The translations under genes and the position numbers were made by a program. 64,000 bases of DNA, taken from the NCBI GenBank assembly GCA_937927515.1, contig CALBDO010000003.1, positions 1,066 through 65,065 of the forward strand. Reading direction: 5' to 3'. This document shows positions 39,005 to 49,682 of this stretch, piece by piece. Within the stretch, counting starts at the first letter, position 1; each line of letters starts with the position of its first letter. This stretch comes from Candidatus Kapaibacterium sp. Its GTDB lineage: Bacteria; Bacteroidota; Ignavibacteria; Kapaibacteriales; UBA2268. The notes below the pieces were generated by a model. The model was given only the letters and a program-made list of their open reading frames with translations. It was not told the origin of the DNA and ran no database searches.

Positions 39005-39686
39005 TTTTTAATTTCTTTTTTAAACGAAAAATTCTCAAATTTTCAAATCTATTTTCAACTCCATTCAGCAATCGAGTGATGTTGGACCTATGAGTAAAAA
39101 GTATTAGAAAGAAAAGCAATGTCGAAAAGGATAACAAAACAGGGAAATTTAAATAATTATGATGAAATACAAATTTTCTTAGTAAAATAAAAATTGGATA
39201 TGAAAAAGAAGCCAATATTGAGCCAAGAGAGACATAACCAGTTGAAAAGAGAACCAATGCAAAAACAACTAAACAAAGTAAAACTTCAAAAGGTGAAACA
39301 GCTAAAAACATTCCTAATGCAGTATTGATACCTTTGCCACCTTTAAAACCCACAAATATTGACCAAATATGTCCAGCAATAGCTAAAAACCCACAAAAAA
39401 GTTTAAAAATCAACGGACCTCCAAGAGTATTGACAAAGTCTACGTGGAGATTGTTTACTACCCACATTGAAACAAAATATGATGCTACAAAACCCTTTAG
39501 TATGTCCACTACCTGAACAATAATACCCCAAAAAATACCCAGCTGACGAAAGGCATTTGTACTCCCCATATTTCCGCTTCCACGTGTACGAATGTCAAAA
39601 CCGAAAAAGACCCTACTAATTATTACTGCAGTTGGAAAGGAACCTAAAAAGTAACTTAAAATTATCCCTAAAATAATATATAACAT
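38997..39686 (-). CDS. plsY: Glycerol-3-phosphate acyltransferase PlsY
   Basis: GSGNMGSTN, GH..FKGGKG and HRSNI.RL. Confidence 0.95.
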   Translation of the reverse strand: MLYIILGIILSYFLGSFPTAVIISRVFFGFDIRTRGSGNMGSTNAFRQLGIFWGIIVQVVDILKGFVASYFVSMWVVNNLHVDFVNTLGGPLIFKLFCGFLAIAGHIWSIFVGFKGGKGINTALGMFLAVSPFEVLLCLVVFALVLFSTGYVSLGSILASFSYPIFILLRKFVFHHNYLNFPVLLSFSTLLFFLILFTHRSNITRLLNGVENRFENLRIFRLKKKLKNG

Positions 39687-39745
39687 AGGCTCTCGAAAAA
39701 AAACTAAAATAACAAATACAAATTTTCGTTAAAATTTTTTCGCAT

Positions 39746-40081
39746 ATGAGAACAAGTATTTCGAAAAAATTTTTCGTATTTTGGTTTACTCTAATTTCAA
39801 TTTTAGCAAACTTTGACTTCTTCCATTTTCATACCTTCCTCATTAAATCTGATAATCATAAAGTAATCAAGTCACACACCGCCGGAATTGAATTTTCAAC
39901 TGATAAGTGTCTATTAGATTTCTTCCTATTAATATTAAGTAATATTATTTTAGCTAAAACAGATTTTCAGCTTTTTCTGAAAAATCTTTCTATTGCTCCT
40001 ACCTACACAATTACCTTTTATCCTCGAACATTTGTTGTAGATTACGTCCCTCGGGCTCCCCCGATTTTACAAGCGAGCTGA
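39746..40081 (+). CDS. DUF2946-like leader protein with C-terminal RAPP motif (putative ribosome-arrest regulator)
   Basis: N-terminal hydrophobic segment, HFH/His residues, one Cys, and VPRAPP five residues from the C-terminus; precedes metal-uptake genes. Confidence 0.6.
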   Translation: MRTSISKKFFVFWFTLISILANFDFFHFHTFLIKSDNHKVIKSHTAGIEFSTDKCLLDFFLLILSNIILAKTDFQLFLKNLSIAPTYTITFYPRTFVVDYVPRAPPILQAS

Positions 40082-40186
40082 AACAATAAATCAAGTCCTT
40101 GTCATTAGTAATTTTAGAGTCAACATTTAAAGTTTTTTCAAAAATTCTACATCTACATTAAGTCAATAAAATTATGGAGGTTTAGT

Positions 40187-40642
40187 ATGAAAACTTTGAA
40201 AATGTTATTCATATACTCGTTTTTACTAATCATATTTTTTAATTCGTGTAAAGAAAAGAATACTTTGGAAGACGAACATGACCATACCGAAGCAATTGGG
40301 CTAATTATCTATCACAACGGAAAGCCTTACTTCAAGGTCATAAATGCCCAAATCGATACAAGCATTGCAAAGGAATTTCTAGTACCTCTCAACGAGGACA
40401 GGTACTTCGAAGTCAAGTTCATTGATACCGAGGGACACGAGGAAGTACCTTCAGAAAGTTCCAAAAATTTTTCTTGGGTTCTAGACGATAATACTTTTGT
40501 AGATGCTCGACTGTTACCCAACGAGAAGTTTAAATTCAAAATGCGTGGATTAAAATCTGGAAAGACATTAATCGAATTTAGGTTAAATCATTTTGACCAC
40601 CCAGATTTCAAGACACCAAAGGTGCCTTTGGTCGTAAAATAA
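40187..40642 (+). CDS. His/acid-rich lipoprotein, probable metal-binding
   Basis: Lipobox FNSC, EDEHDHTEA and NHFDHPDF; GGAGG SD. Confidence 0.7.
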   Translation: MKTLKMLFIYSFLLIIFFNSCKEKNTLEDEHDHTEAIGLIIYHNGKPYFKVINAQIDTSIAKEFLVPLNEDRYFEVKFIDTEGHEEVPSESSKNFSWVLDDNTFVDARLLPNEKFKFKMRGLKSGKTLIEFRLNHFDHPDFKTPKVPLVVK

Positions 40643-40655
40643 TCATCATTGCGAA

Positions 40656-40768
40656 GGAGGCTCTCTTGAGGTAGCTTTAATTTTGATTTATAGTTCTATT
40701 TTTGCACTTGCAAACTAATCAACGCAACAGTTTTATAAAAACTTAGTTCCATACTTAAGAGAGCCTCC
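40656..40768. repeat. 113-bp segment bounded by 15-bp inverted repeats
   Basis: GGAGGCTCTCTTGAG (40656-40670) and CTTAAGAGAGCCTCC (40754-40768) match at 14/15 positions. Confidence 0.65.
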
Positions 40769-40793
40769 GTAATTTAATTTTGTGGAGACAATC

Positions 40794-42983
40794 ATGAAGA
40801 TTTATATACCTCTATTTTTCATTGTTGCAACTAATCTACTTTCGAAAGATACTCATTTCATTGGACTTGTTGTTGACCAAAAAACCTCGACACCAATTCA
40901 CAACGCCAAGATAGAGATTTTTAATTTCCAAACAAAAATTTATCAAACCACAACAGATAGTAGTGGAAAATTCGAATTTACCTTTCCAGAAAATTTAAAT
41001 GAGGTTTTCATAGCTGTGAGTAAGGATAGTTATAAACCCTTGAAACAAAAGGTAAATTTTTCCTCTGATTCAAATTGCACATTTAAGCTTGAACCAAAAG
41101 AATATTATTTGCAGGGCATACTAATAGTTGATACTAAAAAAACTCCAATACAACAATTGCACAACTACGACAATATTTTAGAAGGTAAGGAATTACAGAA
41201 AAACATATCATCTACTTTAGGTTTAACTCTCAAGAACACCACGGACATTTTCGTAAGGTCTATGGGACCAGCTACATCAAAACCTGTTTTCCGTGGGCTA
41301 AGTTTAGAATATTTAGGAATATTTGAAAACAATTTACCAGTAAAAGACCTTTCGACGACGGCACCCGACCATTCAATTGCAGTCAATCCAGTTGGATATG
41401 ATAAAATCGAATTGTTACGTGGGCCAAAACTATTAATCTACACGAACAATGCATTAGGAGGTTTAGTAAACTTAATATCCAAAGATTATCTAATTGAAGA
41501 AATTCCAGAAACCTCTGTAAATTTTTCAACGATTTATGAGTCTGCTTTTGATGCCAAGATATACAACTTAAAATGGGAAATTCCAGTAAATCATTTATTC
41601 ACTTCTGGTTCCATTGGCATAAAGAACTCTCATGATATGCTAAGCGGAAAAGGAATTATACATAACACTTACTTCAAAAGTAATTCGGGAAATTTAAACG
41701 TTGGCTTTAGGAATGCCATACTAAGTGCCTGCGCTGAAGGAAGTTTTTTTGATTTTTCCTATGGTGTGCCGGGTGGTTTTGTTGGTGCTCATCCTAAAGG
41801 GGTTGATATTATTCTAGAACGAAATAACATTAATTTCAAAACACTTATACATTTGCATAAATTGGTTGACAATGTTTCCTTTTACCTTTCTCGCTCTTAT
41901 TATCATCATGTGGAAATCGAGAAAAATGGCACAGTAGGAGCAGAATTCTTGCTTAAAAATTATTACTTCAAAACATACTTAAATTTTAACAAAACAAATA
42001 TTTTAAACGAAAGTATCTTTGGAATTGCATTCGAAAACTCCTTAAATGATTATGGTGGTTACGTTTTCACACCAAGTGTTAATTCATATCTTTTGTCAGC
42101 TTTTATTTACCAAAACATTCGTTTTGGTAACCATTTTATTGATTACTCACTGCGGTATGACCATAAGGAGTATAATCCAGAAAATATTAAAAATCCTAAA
42201 CAAAATCTACCATTTAAACGTATTTTTAACAATTTCTCATTCTCTGTTTTAGTGATGCATAACTTAGGACAAAATTTGTATTTAGGGCTAAACCTTGGCC
42301 GTAATGAAAGATTCCCCACTAATGAAGAACTATATTCTAATGGTCCACATTTAGCTGCATATTCATTTGAAATTGGAAATTCAAAATTAGAAACCGAAGT
42401 GGCTTATTTCACAGAGTTATCTCAAAGTGTAAATCTAAGAAATGTTGGGATAACAAGCTCGATATTTTGGTACGAATTTCCCAACTACCTCCTCCCTCAA
42501 AACACTGGAAGAATTAATGTAGCGCAACTTTTACCAATATACCAAGTCACAAGCATTAAAGCAAGGTTGTTTGGTTTTTCATTCCGGAGCATTATTGATA
42601 TAACAACAAGTACAACTCTTTCAATAGACCTAACATTTAATCATGGTATTGACAGAACAAATGCAAAATATTTGCCAATGATGCCACCAACAAAAGGAAG
42701 CTTAGAGATTAACCAGAAATTTGGTAATTTAGATTTAACTTTTAAAAATACATTTGCATTTTCTCAAAACAAGCTAGGTGAATTTGAAACCCCAACTCCT
42801 GGTTATTCGATAGTATCAGCAAGTTTTGGTTATCAATTATTCCTAAAGCCAATATTAGCAACATTGAAAATAAATGTTGATAATATATTCAACTCAACAT
42901 ATTATAATCATTTATCAAGGATAAAATCAATTTACCCAGAGCCAGGTCGCAACATTAGATTTGTCGCATCATTTTTTTACTAA
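40794..42983 (+). CDS. TonB-dependent receptor, ZnuD-like metal uptake
   Basis: Plug GPATSKPVFRGL...APDH and IELLRGP; YHHVEIE, ELYSNGPHLA, YYNHLS and EPGRN. Confidence 0.82.
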   Translation: MKIYIPLFFIVATNLLSKDTHFIGLVVDQKTSTPIHNAKIEIFNFQTKIYQTTTDSSGKFEFTFPENLNEVFIAVSKDSYKPLKQKVNFSSDSNCTFKLEPKEYYLQGILIVDTKKTPIQQLHNYDNILEGKELQKNISSTLGLTLKNTTDIFVRSMGPATSKPVFRGLSLEYLGIFENNLPVKDLSTTAPDHSIAVNPVGYDKIELLRGPKLLIYTNNALGGLVNLISKDYLIEEIPETSVNFSTIYESAFDAKIYNLKWEIPVNHLFTSGSIGIKNSHDMLSGKGIIHNTYFKSNSGNLNVGFRNAILSACAEGSFFDFSYGVPGGFVGAHPKGVDIILERNNINFKTLIHLHKLVDNVSFYLSRSYYHHVEIEKNGTVGAEFLLKNYYFKTYLNFNKTNILNESIFGIAFENSLNDYGGYVFTPSVNSYLLSAFIYQNIRFGNHFIDYSLRYDHKEYNPENIKNPKQNLPFKRIFNNFSFSVLVMHNLGQNLYLGLNLGRNERFPTNEELYSNGPHLAAYSFEIGNSKLETEVAYFTELSQSVNLRNVGITSSIFWYEFPNYLLPQNTGRINVAQLLPIYQVTSIKARLFGFSFRSIIDITTSTTLSIDLTFNHGIDRTNAKYLPMMPPTKGSLEINQKFGNLDLTFKNTFAFSQNKLGEFETPTPGYSIVSASFGYQLFLKPILATLKINVDNIFNSTYYNHLSRIKSIYPEPGRNIRFVASFFY

Positions 42984-46909: not shown

Positions 46910-47278
46910 GTATGTTGCTTTGGTCGAATTGCTATCCGCTCTTACAAGATGAATAATCTATTTATATATCATCATCCGTTTCATCAGGTTGAGATAACCC
47001 ATAGCGAGGCAAATGAGTTCCTGGGAGAAAAACTAGTTCCCGTGCCCCACAGTTATTAACCCCAAAATGGTTATTATTGATAAGTTACCATAGTAAAATA
47101 AAGATGGAAAAATTAACAATACTTATGGAATCTAAAAAAATCCAAAACATTTTAAAAAAAATTAAATTTATGCTTTTAAAACAGATTTTTTTTTCTTATT
47201 TTGCTATTTGTTAAAAATTTTTTTTACAATTTAATTTTTGATTTAAGTGATGGTTTTACTTTACGGAGGGTTGATAAT

Positions 47279-47695
47279 ATGATATTTAGATTTACAATTC
47301 AATGTTTATTGATTTCACTATTTGCTTTTTTAGTTAATGGATGTGGTGGTAATAATTCCAGCAGTGGAGAATTCACGGTTGTGCAGGATGTAAAAGTTGG
47401 AGCCTTCGATGCCAGCCTTGCTGCTAAAGGTGAACAAATCTTTAAAATGAAATGCATAGCCTGTCACCAATATGACAAGAGGTTAGTAGGACCTCCTTTG
47501 CGAGATGTAGCAAAGCGACGTAGTGCAAATTACATAATCAGTATGATTATTTCACCTGAAGAAATGCAGGAAAAAAACGACACAGTCAAAGCCTTAGTTC
47601 AACAATATATGACAAAGATGACGAATCAAAATGTGACATTAGACGATGCACGTGCTATTTACGAACATTTACGTGAAATTGCTGGACTTAAATAG
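47279..47695 (+). CDS. Monoheme cytochrome c lipoprotein, probable NosZ electron donor
   Basis: Lipobox VNGC, CIACH, VGPPL and distal Met; GGAGG SD before ATG 47279; precedes nosZ. Confidence 0.88.
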   Translation: MIFRFTIQCLLISLFAFLVNGCGGNNSSSGEFTVVQDVKVGAFDASLAAKGEQIFKMKCIACHQYDKRLVGPPLRDVAKRRSANYIISMIISPEEMQEKNDTVKALVQQYMTKMTNQNVTLDDARAIYEHLREIAGLK

Positions 47696-47732
47696 ATTTG
47701 TTTTTCCAAATTATTTTATTGGGGGAGGTATT

Positions 47733-49682
47733 ATGAAAAGCAAATTGATGATTGGATTTGTTGCATCCACAATCCTCTTCGTTGCAATTTTATTTTTTGG
47801 TTGCCCTTCGAGTAAGAAAGGCTTAGTCGAGGGAGACGCTGCTGTGAAAGTTTACGTTCCACCTGGAAAGCATGATGAATTCTATGCTTTCTTATCTGGT
47901 GGATTTAGCGGACAGGTTTCTGTCTATGGTATTCCAAGTGGAAGGTTGCTAAGGGTAATTCCCGTCTTCTCCCAAAATCCCGAAAACGGGTACGGGTATT
48001 CAGAGGAGACAAAAGCTTTGCTGTACACCACACACGGATTTATTCCTTGGGATGACTCCCACCATCCCAAGCTATCCCAAACCAATGGTGTTGCAGACGG
48101 GCGGTGGCTTTTTATTAACTCAAATAATACCCCACGAATTGCTCGAATCGATTTATCAACATTCCGAACAGTCGAAATAATCGAAATTCCAAATAGCGGT
48201 GGAAACCATGCCTCACCTTTCGTTACAGAAAACACTGAATATGTCGTTGCAGCAACAAGATTTAGCGTACCAATTCCACAAGAAGACGTTGAAATCGCAA
48301 GTTACAAAGATAAATTCAAAGGAACTATATCTTTTATCAAGGTAGACCAGCAAACTGGACGAATGAATATCGCATTCCAAATACTTATGCCCGGTTACAA
48401 TTATGACCTCAGCCATGCAGGAAAGGGCAAGTCGCATGGCTGGTTCTTTTTCAGTTCATACAATACGGAACAAGCACACACCTTGCTCGAAGTCAATGCG
48501 AGTCAAAACGATAAAGACTTTATTGCTGCTGTGAACTGGAAGAAGGCAGAAGAATACGTTGCACAAGGCAAAGCCCACGAAATCTCTGGAATTCATTATC
48601 ATAATGTTTTCGATGAGAAAAAACAAACTGCGTATTCTGAAATAATTGACAAGGTAAAAATATTGATACCCGAAGAATGCCCCGGGCTAGTTTACTTTAT
48701 CCCCACACCCAAGTCGCCACATGGTTGTGATGTAGACCCCGAAGGAGAATATATTGTGGGTGGCGGTAAACTGGCTACTGTCATTCCGGTCTTTTCATTT
48801 ACTAAAATGCTGAAAGCAATAGAAGAGAAAAAATTTGATAAGACCATCGACGGTATCCCTGTCTTGAACTACGAAGCTGTTCTTGCCGGAGAAGTTCAAA
48901 ATCCCGGATTAGGACCACTTCACACTGAATTCGATGGAAAAGGATATGCATATACCTCTGTATTTATCTCTTCCGAGGTAATTAAATGGAGCTTAAAGGA
49001 TTTCAAAGTCGTCGATAGAATCCCTGTTTACTACTCTGTCGGGCATTTATGCCTTCCTGGTGGAGACACGAAGAAACCTACACCTAAGTACGTTCTTGCA
49101 ATGAATAAAATAACAAAAGACCGATATTTGCCAACTGGACCAGAGCTTGCTCAATCTGCACAACTAATTGATATAACCGGGGAAAAGATGAAATTGCTTT
49201 CCGACTTTCCTACGGTCGGCGAGCCTCACTATGCACAAATGATACCAGCCGAGGTGATAAAAGACAAATCCGTAAAAATATATAAACTCGAAGAAAATCA
49301 ACATCCACATAGAACACTTAGCCCAGACCAAGTAAAAGTAATTAGGAACGGCAAGGAAGTCCATGTCTATATGGTCGCTATTCGTTCACACTTCACTCCG
49401 GATAACATCGAGGGTATAAAAGTCGGTGATGAGGTTTATTTCCATGTTACGAATTTAGAACAAGACTGGGATATTCCTCACGGCTTTGCTATCTTTGGTT
49501 CAAATAATGCGGAACTATTAATAATGCCCGGAGAGACGTTGACATTGAAATGGACTCCTAAATACCCTGGTGTATTTCCATTCTACTGCACGGATTTCTG
49601 CTCTGCATTGCATCAGGAAATGCAAGGCTATGTTCGCGTTTCACCAGCAAACTCTAAAGTTAATTTGACTTGGAATAAATAA
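47733..49682 (+). CDS. nosZ: Nitrous-oxide reductase, clade II (Sec-dependent)
   Basis: Sec/lipoprotein signal without twin Arg; DSHH, GNH, KSPHG, GPLHT, SVGH, EPHY; CuA site HG...CTDFCSALHQEM. Confidence 0.96.
   Translation: MKSKLMIGFVASTILFVAILFFGCPSSKKGLVEGDAAVKVYVPPGKHDEFYAFLSGGFSGQVSVYGIPSGRLLRVIPVFSQNPENGYGYSEETKALLYTTHGFIPWDDSHHPKLSQTNGVADGRWLFINSNNTPRIARIDLSTFRTVEIIEIPNSGGNHASPFVTENTEYVVAATRFSVPIPQEDVEIASYKDKFKGTISFIKVDQQTGRMNIAFQILMPGYNYDLSHAGKGKSHGWFFFSSYNTEQAHTLLEVNASQNDKDFIAAVNWKKAEEYVAQGKAHEISGIHYHNVFDEKKQTAYSEIIDKVKILIPEECPGLVYFIPTPKSPHGCDVDPEGEYIVGGGKLATVIPVFSFTKMLKAIEEKKFDKTIDGIPVLNYEAVLAGEVQNPGLGPLHTEFDGKGYAYTSVFISSEVIKWSLKDFKVVDRIPVYYSVGHLCLPGGDTKKPTPKYVLAMNKITKDRYLPTGPELAQSAQLIDITGEKMKLLSDFPTVGEPHYAQMIPAEVIKDKSVKIYKLEENQHPHRTLSPDQVKVIRNGKEVHVYMVAIRSHFTPDNIEGIKVGDEVYFHVTNLEQDWDIPHGFAIFGSNNAELLIMPGETLTLKWTPKYPGVFPFYCTDFCSALHQEMQGYVRVSPANSKVNLTWNK

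Follow-up and report, generated by a model that had tools for sequence, protein, structure and literature searches.

The stretch of DNA analysed here (64,000 nucleotides (nt) of contig CALBDO010000003.1 from Candidatus Kapaibacterium sp., hereafter called the window) contains, at 39746-40081 on the forward strand, an open reading frame (ORF) of 111 codons plus stop with an ATG start, as read from the window sequence and its ORF list, which heads an operon encoding a lipoprotein and a TonB-dependent receptor. This ORF probably encodes a regulatory leader peptide of the CruR/CutF kind, built around a translational arrest that a metal, most likely zinc, would release. Depending on the part of this interpretation that is considered, the degree of confidence differs. 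By analogy with characterised leaders, the ORF has a good probability of being an arrest-type regulatory leader; provided that it is one, zinc is given a modest preference as the signal, and the idea that the operon harbours the first zinc-sensing nascent-chain switch, governing the outer-membrane uptake of zinc in a lineage where no Fur/Zur regulator was found, should be taken as tentative. To date, the known metal-sensing arrest peptides comprise two copper cases. Roy et al. (2022, PMC9426467) point out that riboswitches for copper or zinc are not known.

The leader and the operon that follows it are organized as listed below, all features being located on the forward strand, with lengths of proteins in amino acids (aa) and with the Shine-Dalgarno sequence abbreviated as SD and immunoglobulin as Ig.

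39687..39745, +, putative divergent control region of 59 nt, bounded by the leader ATG and by a plsY-like gene on the minus strand, which starts at 39686
39770..39823, +, hydrophobic export/anchor helix predicted from the sequence, leader residues 9-26
39824..39832, +, HxH motif His27-Phe-His29 (HFH), directly after the helix
39908..39925, +, Cys motif C-L-L-D-F-F, residues 55-60, in the place occupied elsewhere by CxxC
39926..40051, +, spacer, residues 61-102, fixed in length and free in sequence
40052..40063, +, candidate arrest core R-A-P-P, residues 103-106, codons CGG GCT CCC CCG
40082..40186, +, A/U-rich gap of 105 nt between leader and lipoprotein genes, with the SD GGAGG at 40176-40180
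40187..40642, +, lipoprotein gene, 151 aa, with lipobox Cys21 and a predicted Ig-like beta sandwich of no named family
40648..40773, +, predicted long-range hairpin (5 + 15 pairs), within the 151 nt that separate the lipoprotein and receptor genes
40794..42983, +, TonB-dependent receptor, 729 aa, composed of CarboxypepD_reg at the N-terminus, a plug and a barrel resembling that of ZnuD

The leader family and its operon

The coordinates and features given for the ORF in the earlier note, made from the window sequence alone, i.e., an export-like helix, the HFH motif, a single Cys and RAPP at 40052-40063, are correct, and so is the absence of CxxC, Cys55 being the only Cys of the leader. The His residues are located at positions 27, 29, 38 and 44. 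At the N-terminus, the basic residues Arg3, Lys7 and Lys8 precede the hydrophobic residues 9-26 and, following the positive-inside rule, the helix would be oriented N-in. The RAPP motif ends five residues ahead of the stop codon. A greedy set of 2,024 ORFs (756,451 aa) covering the whole genome contains only three occurrences of R[AGS]PP, and the leader provides the only one that lies within 25 residues of a C-terminus; owing to this genome-wide rarity and to its conservation in relatives, the RAPP of the leader is beyond chance.

Among the 14 candidates of a word-based homologue search, the leader matched itself alone. A profile search against 1.84 billion cluster representatives recovered a family of 13 clusters, from which an alignment of 16 sequences was built. 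His27, His29, Cys55, Phe60, Arg103 and Pro105 are invariant in all 16 members, 15 of which end with R[ASG]PP at one to seven residues ahead of the stop. At position +3 from the Cys, 15 members have Asp or Glu and the remaining one has His, and the distance from the Cys to the Arg equals 48 residues in 14 members and 49 in the other two. The mean pairwise identity reaches 0.65 in the HxH block, 0.40 in the Cys block and 0.56 in the arrest block, as compared to 0.11 for the 34 spacer residues 67-100. Such a conserved length over an unconserved sequence looks like a ruler linking a sensor to an arrest site, unlike a folded domain. In the AlphaFold2 model of the leader (predicted local distance difference test, pLDDT, 61.2; predicted template-modelling score, pTM, 0.27), helix 2-26 is the sole confident part; a second helix is predicted at residues 56-71 and the rest is modelled as disordered, with a pLDDT below 50 at residues 81-95.

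In a six-frame search of 61 related genomes, the leader was recovered from five genomes of the same genus (G004, G005, G006, G007 and G008) and from one genome of another genus (G021), all other matches being weak or located in frames broken by stops. In G005, the leader is cut by the contig end. In every intact relative, it sits between a plsY-like gene and the same lipoprotein-receptor pair. Within the genus, the leader and the lipoprotein occur together in G000, G004, G006, G007 and G008; neither of them was found in G001, G003 and G009, and in G002 the leader matches at chance level only and the lipoprotein was not found.

The linkage extends to the whole class. In a sample of 251 genomes, the lipoprotein profile matched in 82, and the 30 best-scoring lipoprotein loci were examined for an upstream leader. 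All 30 possess an upstream ORF with a terminal [RK][AGS]PP located one to five residues before the stop (19 RAPP, 7 RGPP, 1 RSPP and 3 KAPP), and in all 30 a Cys occurs 47-50 residues before the Arg/Lys of the motif. An HxH motif is similarly found upstream of the Cys in all of them, 70-83 residues before the Arg/Lys in 23 leaders and closer in seven. The order leader-lipoprotein-receptor is the same in the 30 loci, the leader always being the first gene, and a gap with a median of 92 nt (range 52-185) separates it from the lipoprotein gene. The codons for R-x-P-P vary synonymously, which indicates that selection acts on the peptide. The earlier note had made its proposal depend on RAPP being kept in syntenic homologues, and the R(A/S/G)PP motif is indeed retained, along with the His pair and the Cys, in 15 of the 16 family members and, with Lys for Arg in three leaders, in all 30 class-wide loci. 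Depending on the leader, the Cys motif is a CxxC (14 of the 30) or contains a single Cys (16 of the 30), and the lipoprotein-receptor cargo is the same for both types; the single-Cys leaders display His, Gln, Asp/Glu, Ser, Asn, Arg or a hydrophobic residue at position +3. The three KAPP leaders (loci L054, L064 and L065 of genomes G377, G311 and G509) belong to one genus and carry the motif in the same position as RAPP.

No Pfam or NCBIfam model matched the leader, and nothing consistent was obtained across its family; in particular, no NCBIfam model for small Bacteroidota proteins carrying HYC, CC and PP motifs matched. The leader family and the family of lipoproteins with a His cluster are two unnamed families, the members of which are called hypothetical by annotation pipelines.

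Comparison with known arrest leaders and a proposed mechanism

CruR (Bp2923 of Bordetella pertussis) belongs to the DUF2946 family (PF11162), to which the earlier note had proposed to compare the window ORF by a hidden Markov model search. The outcome was negative, since PF11162, with a membership threshold of 23.7 bits, matched neither the window ORF at E <= 1 nor anything in a six-frame search of the whole genome at E <= 10. The leader is not a formal member of DUF2946, yet it is CruR/CutF-like. When 301 genomes sampled from the phylum were searched, 22 contained a weak match to PF11162, four of them above the cut-off, and the ORFs behind these matches consist of a helix, an HxH motif, a His-rich stretch, a CxxC motif and an R[AG]PP located 47-51 residues further on. 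Ten such CxxC leaders all show a weak match to PF11162 at E <= 1 (best 1e-5), and several of them precede homologues of the lipoprotein and receptor of the window. In a profile-profile comparison of the window family with these ten leaders (E = 2.9e-4), Cys55 falls on the first Cys of CxxC and RxPP on RAPP. The nearest named clusters in a protein atlas are similarly DUF2946 (0.94) and DUF6769 (0.92). For the CxxC leaders, NCBIfam yielded nothing beyond weak matches to LIC10965_fam in three of the ten. We read these data as a distant homology to the DUF2946 leaders, in which the shared context weighs more than the sequence statistics.

In the CruR family, CxxC and RAPP are separated by 45 residues, a distance which is kept within one or two residues; mutations of RAPP abolish expression, mutations of CxxC abolish the control by copper, and an insertion of five residues breaks the regulation (Roy et al. 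2022, PMC9426467). The window leader resembles CruR, as far as the latter is described there, in heading an operon that encodes a TonB-dependent transporter and in the long gap that follows it, in its predicted N-terminal export signal, in its RAPP a few residues before the stop and in its Cys sensor at a fixed distance from RAPP, with 44 residues between Asp58 and Arg103 (44-45 after the four-residue Cys motif within the family). It differs from CruR by the lack of a PF11162 match, by a Cys and an acidic residue where CruR has CxxC, and by an additional invariant HxH beside the helix. The cargo consists of a new lipoprotein and a ZnuD-type receptor instead of a copper-type one, the host is a low-GC Kapaibacteriota-like member of the Bacteroidota instead of a proteobacterium, and the step involving Rho has no sequence support at the window locus. 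The assignment of the host to the FCB group, put forward in the earlier note, agrees with the Candidatus Kapaibacteriota label which the source gives to close homologues of the lipoprotein.

CutF from Rhodobacter capsulatus is likewise described as a DUF2946-type leader that senses a metal during co-translational export, stalls at a C-terminal proline motif and controls the next gene (Ozturk et al., bioRxiv 10.1101/2025.02.05.636593). In CutF, however, the response to high copper is the production of a detoxifying oxidase, brought about when a stem-loop covering the ribosome-binding site melts, whereas the cargo of the window leader is an importer, and no stem-loop engaging the stall site is predicted at its locus. 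In ApdA/ApdP and SecM, a RAPP (or RAGP) core similarly blocks peptide-bond formation with a Pro-tRNA in the A site, but these peptides are reported to monitor the capacity of Sec or YidC, to precede sec genes and to be devoid of metal ligands (Morici et al. 2024, PMC10951233; Sakiyama et al. 2021, PMC7897499). The genes downstream of the window leader are neither sec nor yidC.

A survey of RAPP and RGPP proteins (EMBO J 2025, PMC12992588) reports that both motifs arrest ribosomes in many contexts and resist elongation factor P (EF-P), that RSPP is partially permissive for arrest, and that during the arrest the P and A sites are occupied by the two Pro codons. According to the same survey, small exported RAPP/RGPP proteins are enriched ahead of genes for TonB-dependent receptors in Gram-negative phyla, and copper-related cargo is lacking behind such upstream ORFs in Bacteroidota. 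The window leader conforms to this pattern as a small, presumably exported protein with a C-terminal RAPP-like motif ahead of a TonB-related gene. The survey was restricted to RAPP and RGPP, the word zinc is absent from its main text, and its text passages, source data aside, contain no description of the HxH/single-Cys leader family or of its lipoprotein. A full-text literature search, supplements aside, found nothing joining zinc with RAPP, arrest peptide and TonB-dependent, and the DUF2946 literature, within the same limits, yielded no such leader in Bacteroidota.

By analogy with these systems, the following sequence of events can be proposed for the window leader. The N-terminal helix would take the nascent chain to the membrane, and peptide-bond formation would stall with the ribosome at Pro105/Pro106 of R-A-P-P, as suggested by the literature on RAPP, RGPP and RSPP. 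At the stall, Cys55-x-x-Asp58 would stand at about 50 residues from the peptidyl-transferase centre, just out of the exit tunnel, and His27-x-His29 at the outer end of the helix, and the side chains of His27, His29, Cys55 and Asp58 could together build up a metal site. Without metal, the stalled ribosome would keep the operon on, a CruR-like polarity that is likely because the operon encodes an uptake system. Binding of zinc to the nascent chain would pull the chain and free the arrest, and the expression of the lipoprotein and the receptor would fall. By analogy with CruR, the likely coupling of the stall to expression would be Rho-dependent termination or polarity in the 105-nt gap, from which the stalled ribosome would give protection; Rho is present in the genome.

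The ruler of 47-50 residues that is common to CxxC and single-Cys leaders provides a natural series for studying how ligand binding outside the tunnel is relayed to the peptidyl-transferase centre. If the zinc switch holds true, the class-wide diversity at the fourth ligand, which may be Cys, His, Asp/Glu, Gln or another residue, on a single ruler would amount to a natural tuning of metal affinity. The scheme also suggests how a lineage with no detectable Fur/Zur gene may control its metal import.

Nature of the cargo and weight of the alternatives

The receptor contains the Pfam domains CarboxypepD_reg and Plug, and its best NCBIfam model is ZnuD (NF038289) with 134.6 bits, as compared to 62-65 bits for haem receptors and 37 bits for the TonB-copper model. 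The nearest PDB entry, and thus the nearest solved structure, is ZnuD itself (4rdr, E = 4.3e-20), OprC being more distant (E = 3.4e-5). In ZnuD from Neisseria meningitidis, the high-affinity zinc site consists of Asp-99, His-100 and Glu-340, plus His-499 (Calmettes et al. 2015, PMC4557270). For three of these four ligands, Asp-99, His-100 and His-499, the alignment (in which the chain numbering is offset by 14 from that of the paper) gives Asp192, His193 and His519 as counterparts in the window receptor; the first two form an Asp-His pair in the plug loop, and the third is the His within the ELY..G.H box. These three residues are invariant in all 20 orthologues from the fetched loci. OprC binds copper via a CxxxM-HxM site, as reported in the literature on this receptor; the 20 orthologues contain neither an invariant Cys nor an invariant Met pair for an OprC-type site. 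The resemblance to ZnuD covers 74.6 bits only, over three stretches, the window receptor has the extra CarboxypepD_reg domain, and its operon would be controlled by a leader peptide, whereas ZnuD is controlled by Zur. The sequence evidence as a whole assigns the receptor to the ZnuD type, in agreement with the ZnuD-like receptor named in the earlier note.

The lipoprotein displays six invariant residues in 23 sequences, Cys21, His33, Glu35, His135, His138 and Asp140. The term His-rich used for it in the earlier note is generous, with six His in 151 aa, three of which are invariant. AlphaFold2 predicts an Ig-like sandwich (pLDDT 89.3), Foldseek returns generic Ig and S-layer domains, and the best Pfam result is a weak match to Big_2 in four of the 23 sequences; no match to HmuY or any other haem family was obtained at E <= 1. 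As judged from its sequence, the lipoprotein is a new Ig-like partner with a cluster of His and acidic residues, without a named family.

Depending on the locus, the operon ends with the receptor or is followed by other genes. In 12 of 20 loci, nothing co-directional occurs within 350 nt after the receptor, and where genes follow, most of them look unrelated. The two exceptions are G257, in which the receptor precedes an ABC-3 (ZnuB-type) permease and ExbB/ExbD, and G217 (locus L095, G217:C8, 128-3470), in which a CxxC/RGPP leader heads a 400-aa protein followed by ZnuA (183.7 bits) and ABC-3 (136 bits) genes; the 400-aa protein, which belongs to no Pfam family, could serve the same metal as a channel in the outer membrane. 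No copper-handling family was found among the 29 + 9 neighbours scanned. Zinc is favoured because of the receptor that is nearest to ZnuD, its kept zinc ligands, the ZnuA/ZnuB-type neighbours and the lack of a copper gene, and it appears from these sequence data as the most likely metal. Since the same cargo occurs behind CxxC and single-Cys leaders, this specificity would probably belong to the whole operon family instead of resulting from the loss of CxxC, and a change of metal specificity through that loss, as first proposed from the sequence, is unproven. The host possesses its own ZnuA-like lipoprotein and ZnuC-like ATPase (G000:C1:95711-99466, L098), preceded by a 102-aa thioredoxin-like ORF and by no RAPP leader. 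No Fur-family (Fur/Zur/PerR) gene was found in the genome, which is 98.3% complete, zinc regulators of the MarR, MerR and ArsR types not having been searched; such a gene occurs in one of nine sampled genomes of the same family, versus 218 of the 251 in the class. Class-wide, the absence of Fur does not track the operon, and many genomes contain both, so that there is no general trade-off.

Several observations weigh against a zinc-responsive arrest leader. With respect to the leader itself, member P0012 reads RRPT where the others have RxPP, three class-wide leaders carry KAPP, an exchange of Lys for Arg for which no test of arrest competence was found in the literature consulted, PF11162 fails to match any of the 16 members at E <= 10, and the profile-profile link to the CxxC leaders has a probability of just 40%. 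With respect to the coupling, the 105-nt gap folds no better than shuffled sequences (z = -0.88; 37 of 200 shuffles fold as well), C exceeds G in 11 of 21 spacers, which makes no rut-like bias evident, and the step from stall to expression is without sequence support in the window. As for the metal, the preference for zinc rests on the cargo, and ABC-3/ZnuA systems are known to carry Mn too. The ZnuD model score of the receptor is far below the curated cut-off of 950 bits, and the fourth zinc ligand of ZnuD, Glu-340, falls outside the alignment. In half of the class-wide loci, the leader ahead of this cargo has CxxC, the hallmark of copper, and nosZ, a sign of high copper demand, is located 4.7 kb downstream of the receptor. 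Finally, according to Calmettes et al. (2015, PMC4557270), there is an overlap between the zinc site of ZnuD and the site at which haem receptors bind haem.

Part of these observations would be accounted for by the same arrest leader with copper as the signal, in an operon importing copper, e.g., to supply the nitrous-oxide reductase encoded nearby. Positions 47201-49682, 4.2 to 4.7 kb downstream of the receptor, contain a cytochrome c gene together with nosZ, the latter encoding a nitrous-oxide reductase with a Sec-type leader, and nosZ points to a high copper demand of the organism. CruR and CutF, the only characterised leaders of such design in the sources consulted, both sense copper, 14 of the 30 class-wide leaders keep CxxC ahead of the same cargo, His and Cys can bind copper as well, and the lipoprotein shows weak Foldseek matches to the copper-binding subunits PmoB/AmoB (ranks 18, 19 and 36; template-modelling score about 0.39). 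The receptor is nevertheless much nearer to ZnuD than to TonB-copper receptors and OprC in both bits and E value, it keeps three zinc ligands and lacks the invariant Cys or Met pair, ZnuA/ZnuB-type neighbours occur twice and copper genes not at all among those scanned, and the EMBO J 2025 survey (PMC12992588) reports copper cargo to be lacking behind such ORFs in Bacteroidota. Moreover, the genes between the receptor and nosZ have no metal-related domain, and the nearness of nosZ may be incidental. Taking both sides into account, copper appears as an unlikely signal.

That the ORF simply encodes a small mature protein of the membrane or periplasm, such as a metal chaperone or an accessory subunit, with a RAPP that is incidental or merely slows translation, is improbable. 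CutF was initially regarded as a chaperone for copper (Roy et al. 2022, PMC9426467), the HxH and the Cys would suit metal binding, and the helix would place such a protein in the envelope. However, the stretch between the Cys motif and RxPP keeps its length only, AlphaFold2 predicts no fold for the leader, R[AGS]PP is avoided nearly throughout the proteome but stands at the C-terminus of the upstream ORF in all 30 loci as [RK][AGS]PP, and the ORF is always the first of the operon, followed by a gap of 52-185 nt.

A leader of the same design with haem or another transition metal (Mn, Ni, Co) as its ligand is improbable to a similar degree. The haem-receptor models match the receptor to some extent, the ZnuD site overlaps a haem site, and manganese would be compatible with ABC-3/ZnuA genes. 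In addition, the association of a lipoprotein and a receptor recalls the hmuY-hmuR pair of Bacteroidota, and Cys-Pro, which several class-wide leaders carry, is a haem-regulatory dipeptide. On the other side, the score of the ZnuD model is twice that of the haem models, the family of the window leader has Cys-Leu instead of Cys-Pro, and the lipoprotein matches neither HmuY nor another haem family at E <= 1. Lastly, a force-sensing arrest peptide of the SecM, MifM, ApdA or ApdP type without any metal input is highly improbable. The export helix and the C-terminal RAPP do reproduce the architecture described for substrates that monitor Sec/YidC, but the genes behind the leader encode a lipoprotein and a TonB-dependent receptor instead of Sec or YidC components, and the invariant His, His and Cys at fixed distances would have no role.

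RNA features and surroundings of the operon

A pairing of the RAPP codons with the SD region of the lipoprotein gene, suggested as a weak possibility in the earlier note, exists on paper and stays at chance level, the duplex having an energy of -10.4 kcal/mol versus a shuffle mean of -10.67 +/- 2.32, with 51.5% of 1000 shuffles as good; 42 of 125 other windows of the leader pair equally well. The probability that the SD pairs with the 3' end of the leader is 0.00 in the window, and 0.00, 0.97, 0.01, 0.04 and 0.74 in five relatives. Among the 30 class-wide loci, nine were missed by the lipoprotein motif pattern and three have no recognised SD, and in seven of the 18 loci left for scoring a pairing of the SD with the stall footprint is predicted at >= 0.5. 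This pairing in relatives may reflect the complementarity of Pro-Pro codons to GGAGG, and a CutF-like unmasking of the ribosome-binding site may take place in some of them.

No SD was found ahead of the leader ATG in the control region (39687-39745), and a scan for promoters and terminators performed no better than shuffles. A search of sequencing runs listed no RNA run containing the locus. The region comprises a 33-nt A-rich stretch, 32 positions of which are the same in the closest relative, G008. The A-rich sequence ahead of the leader (39690-39745) contains AAATAAC-like words, and similar words occur in G004 and G007. The ATAAC upstream of the leader corresponds to one half of a palindrome of the Zur-box type, but neither a clear palindrome nor a Fur-family protein was found. 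A search of 39600-41000 against Rfam returned a single sub-threshold snoRNA match, which was rejected as chance.

The hairpin predicted in the gap between the lipoprotein and receptor genes has an energy of -36.8 kcal/mol (z = -2.50); it matches no Rfam family and has no second copy in the genome. In relatives, the two genes are almost contiguous, in contrast to the 151-nt gap of the window. The receptor most likely starts at the ATG at 40794, with GGAG at 40785-40788, the ORF list having a GTG at 40782. A 2-hydroxyacid dehydrogenase gene and then a DUF1015 gene follow the receptor; both are probably unrelated to the operon, and the same order occurs in the two close relatives scanned.

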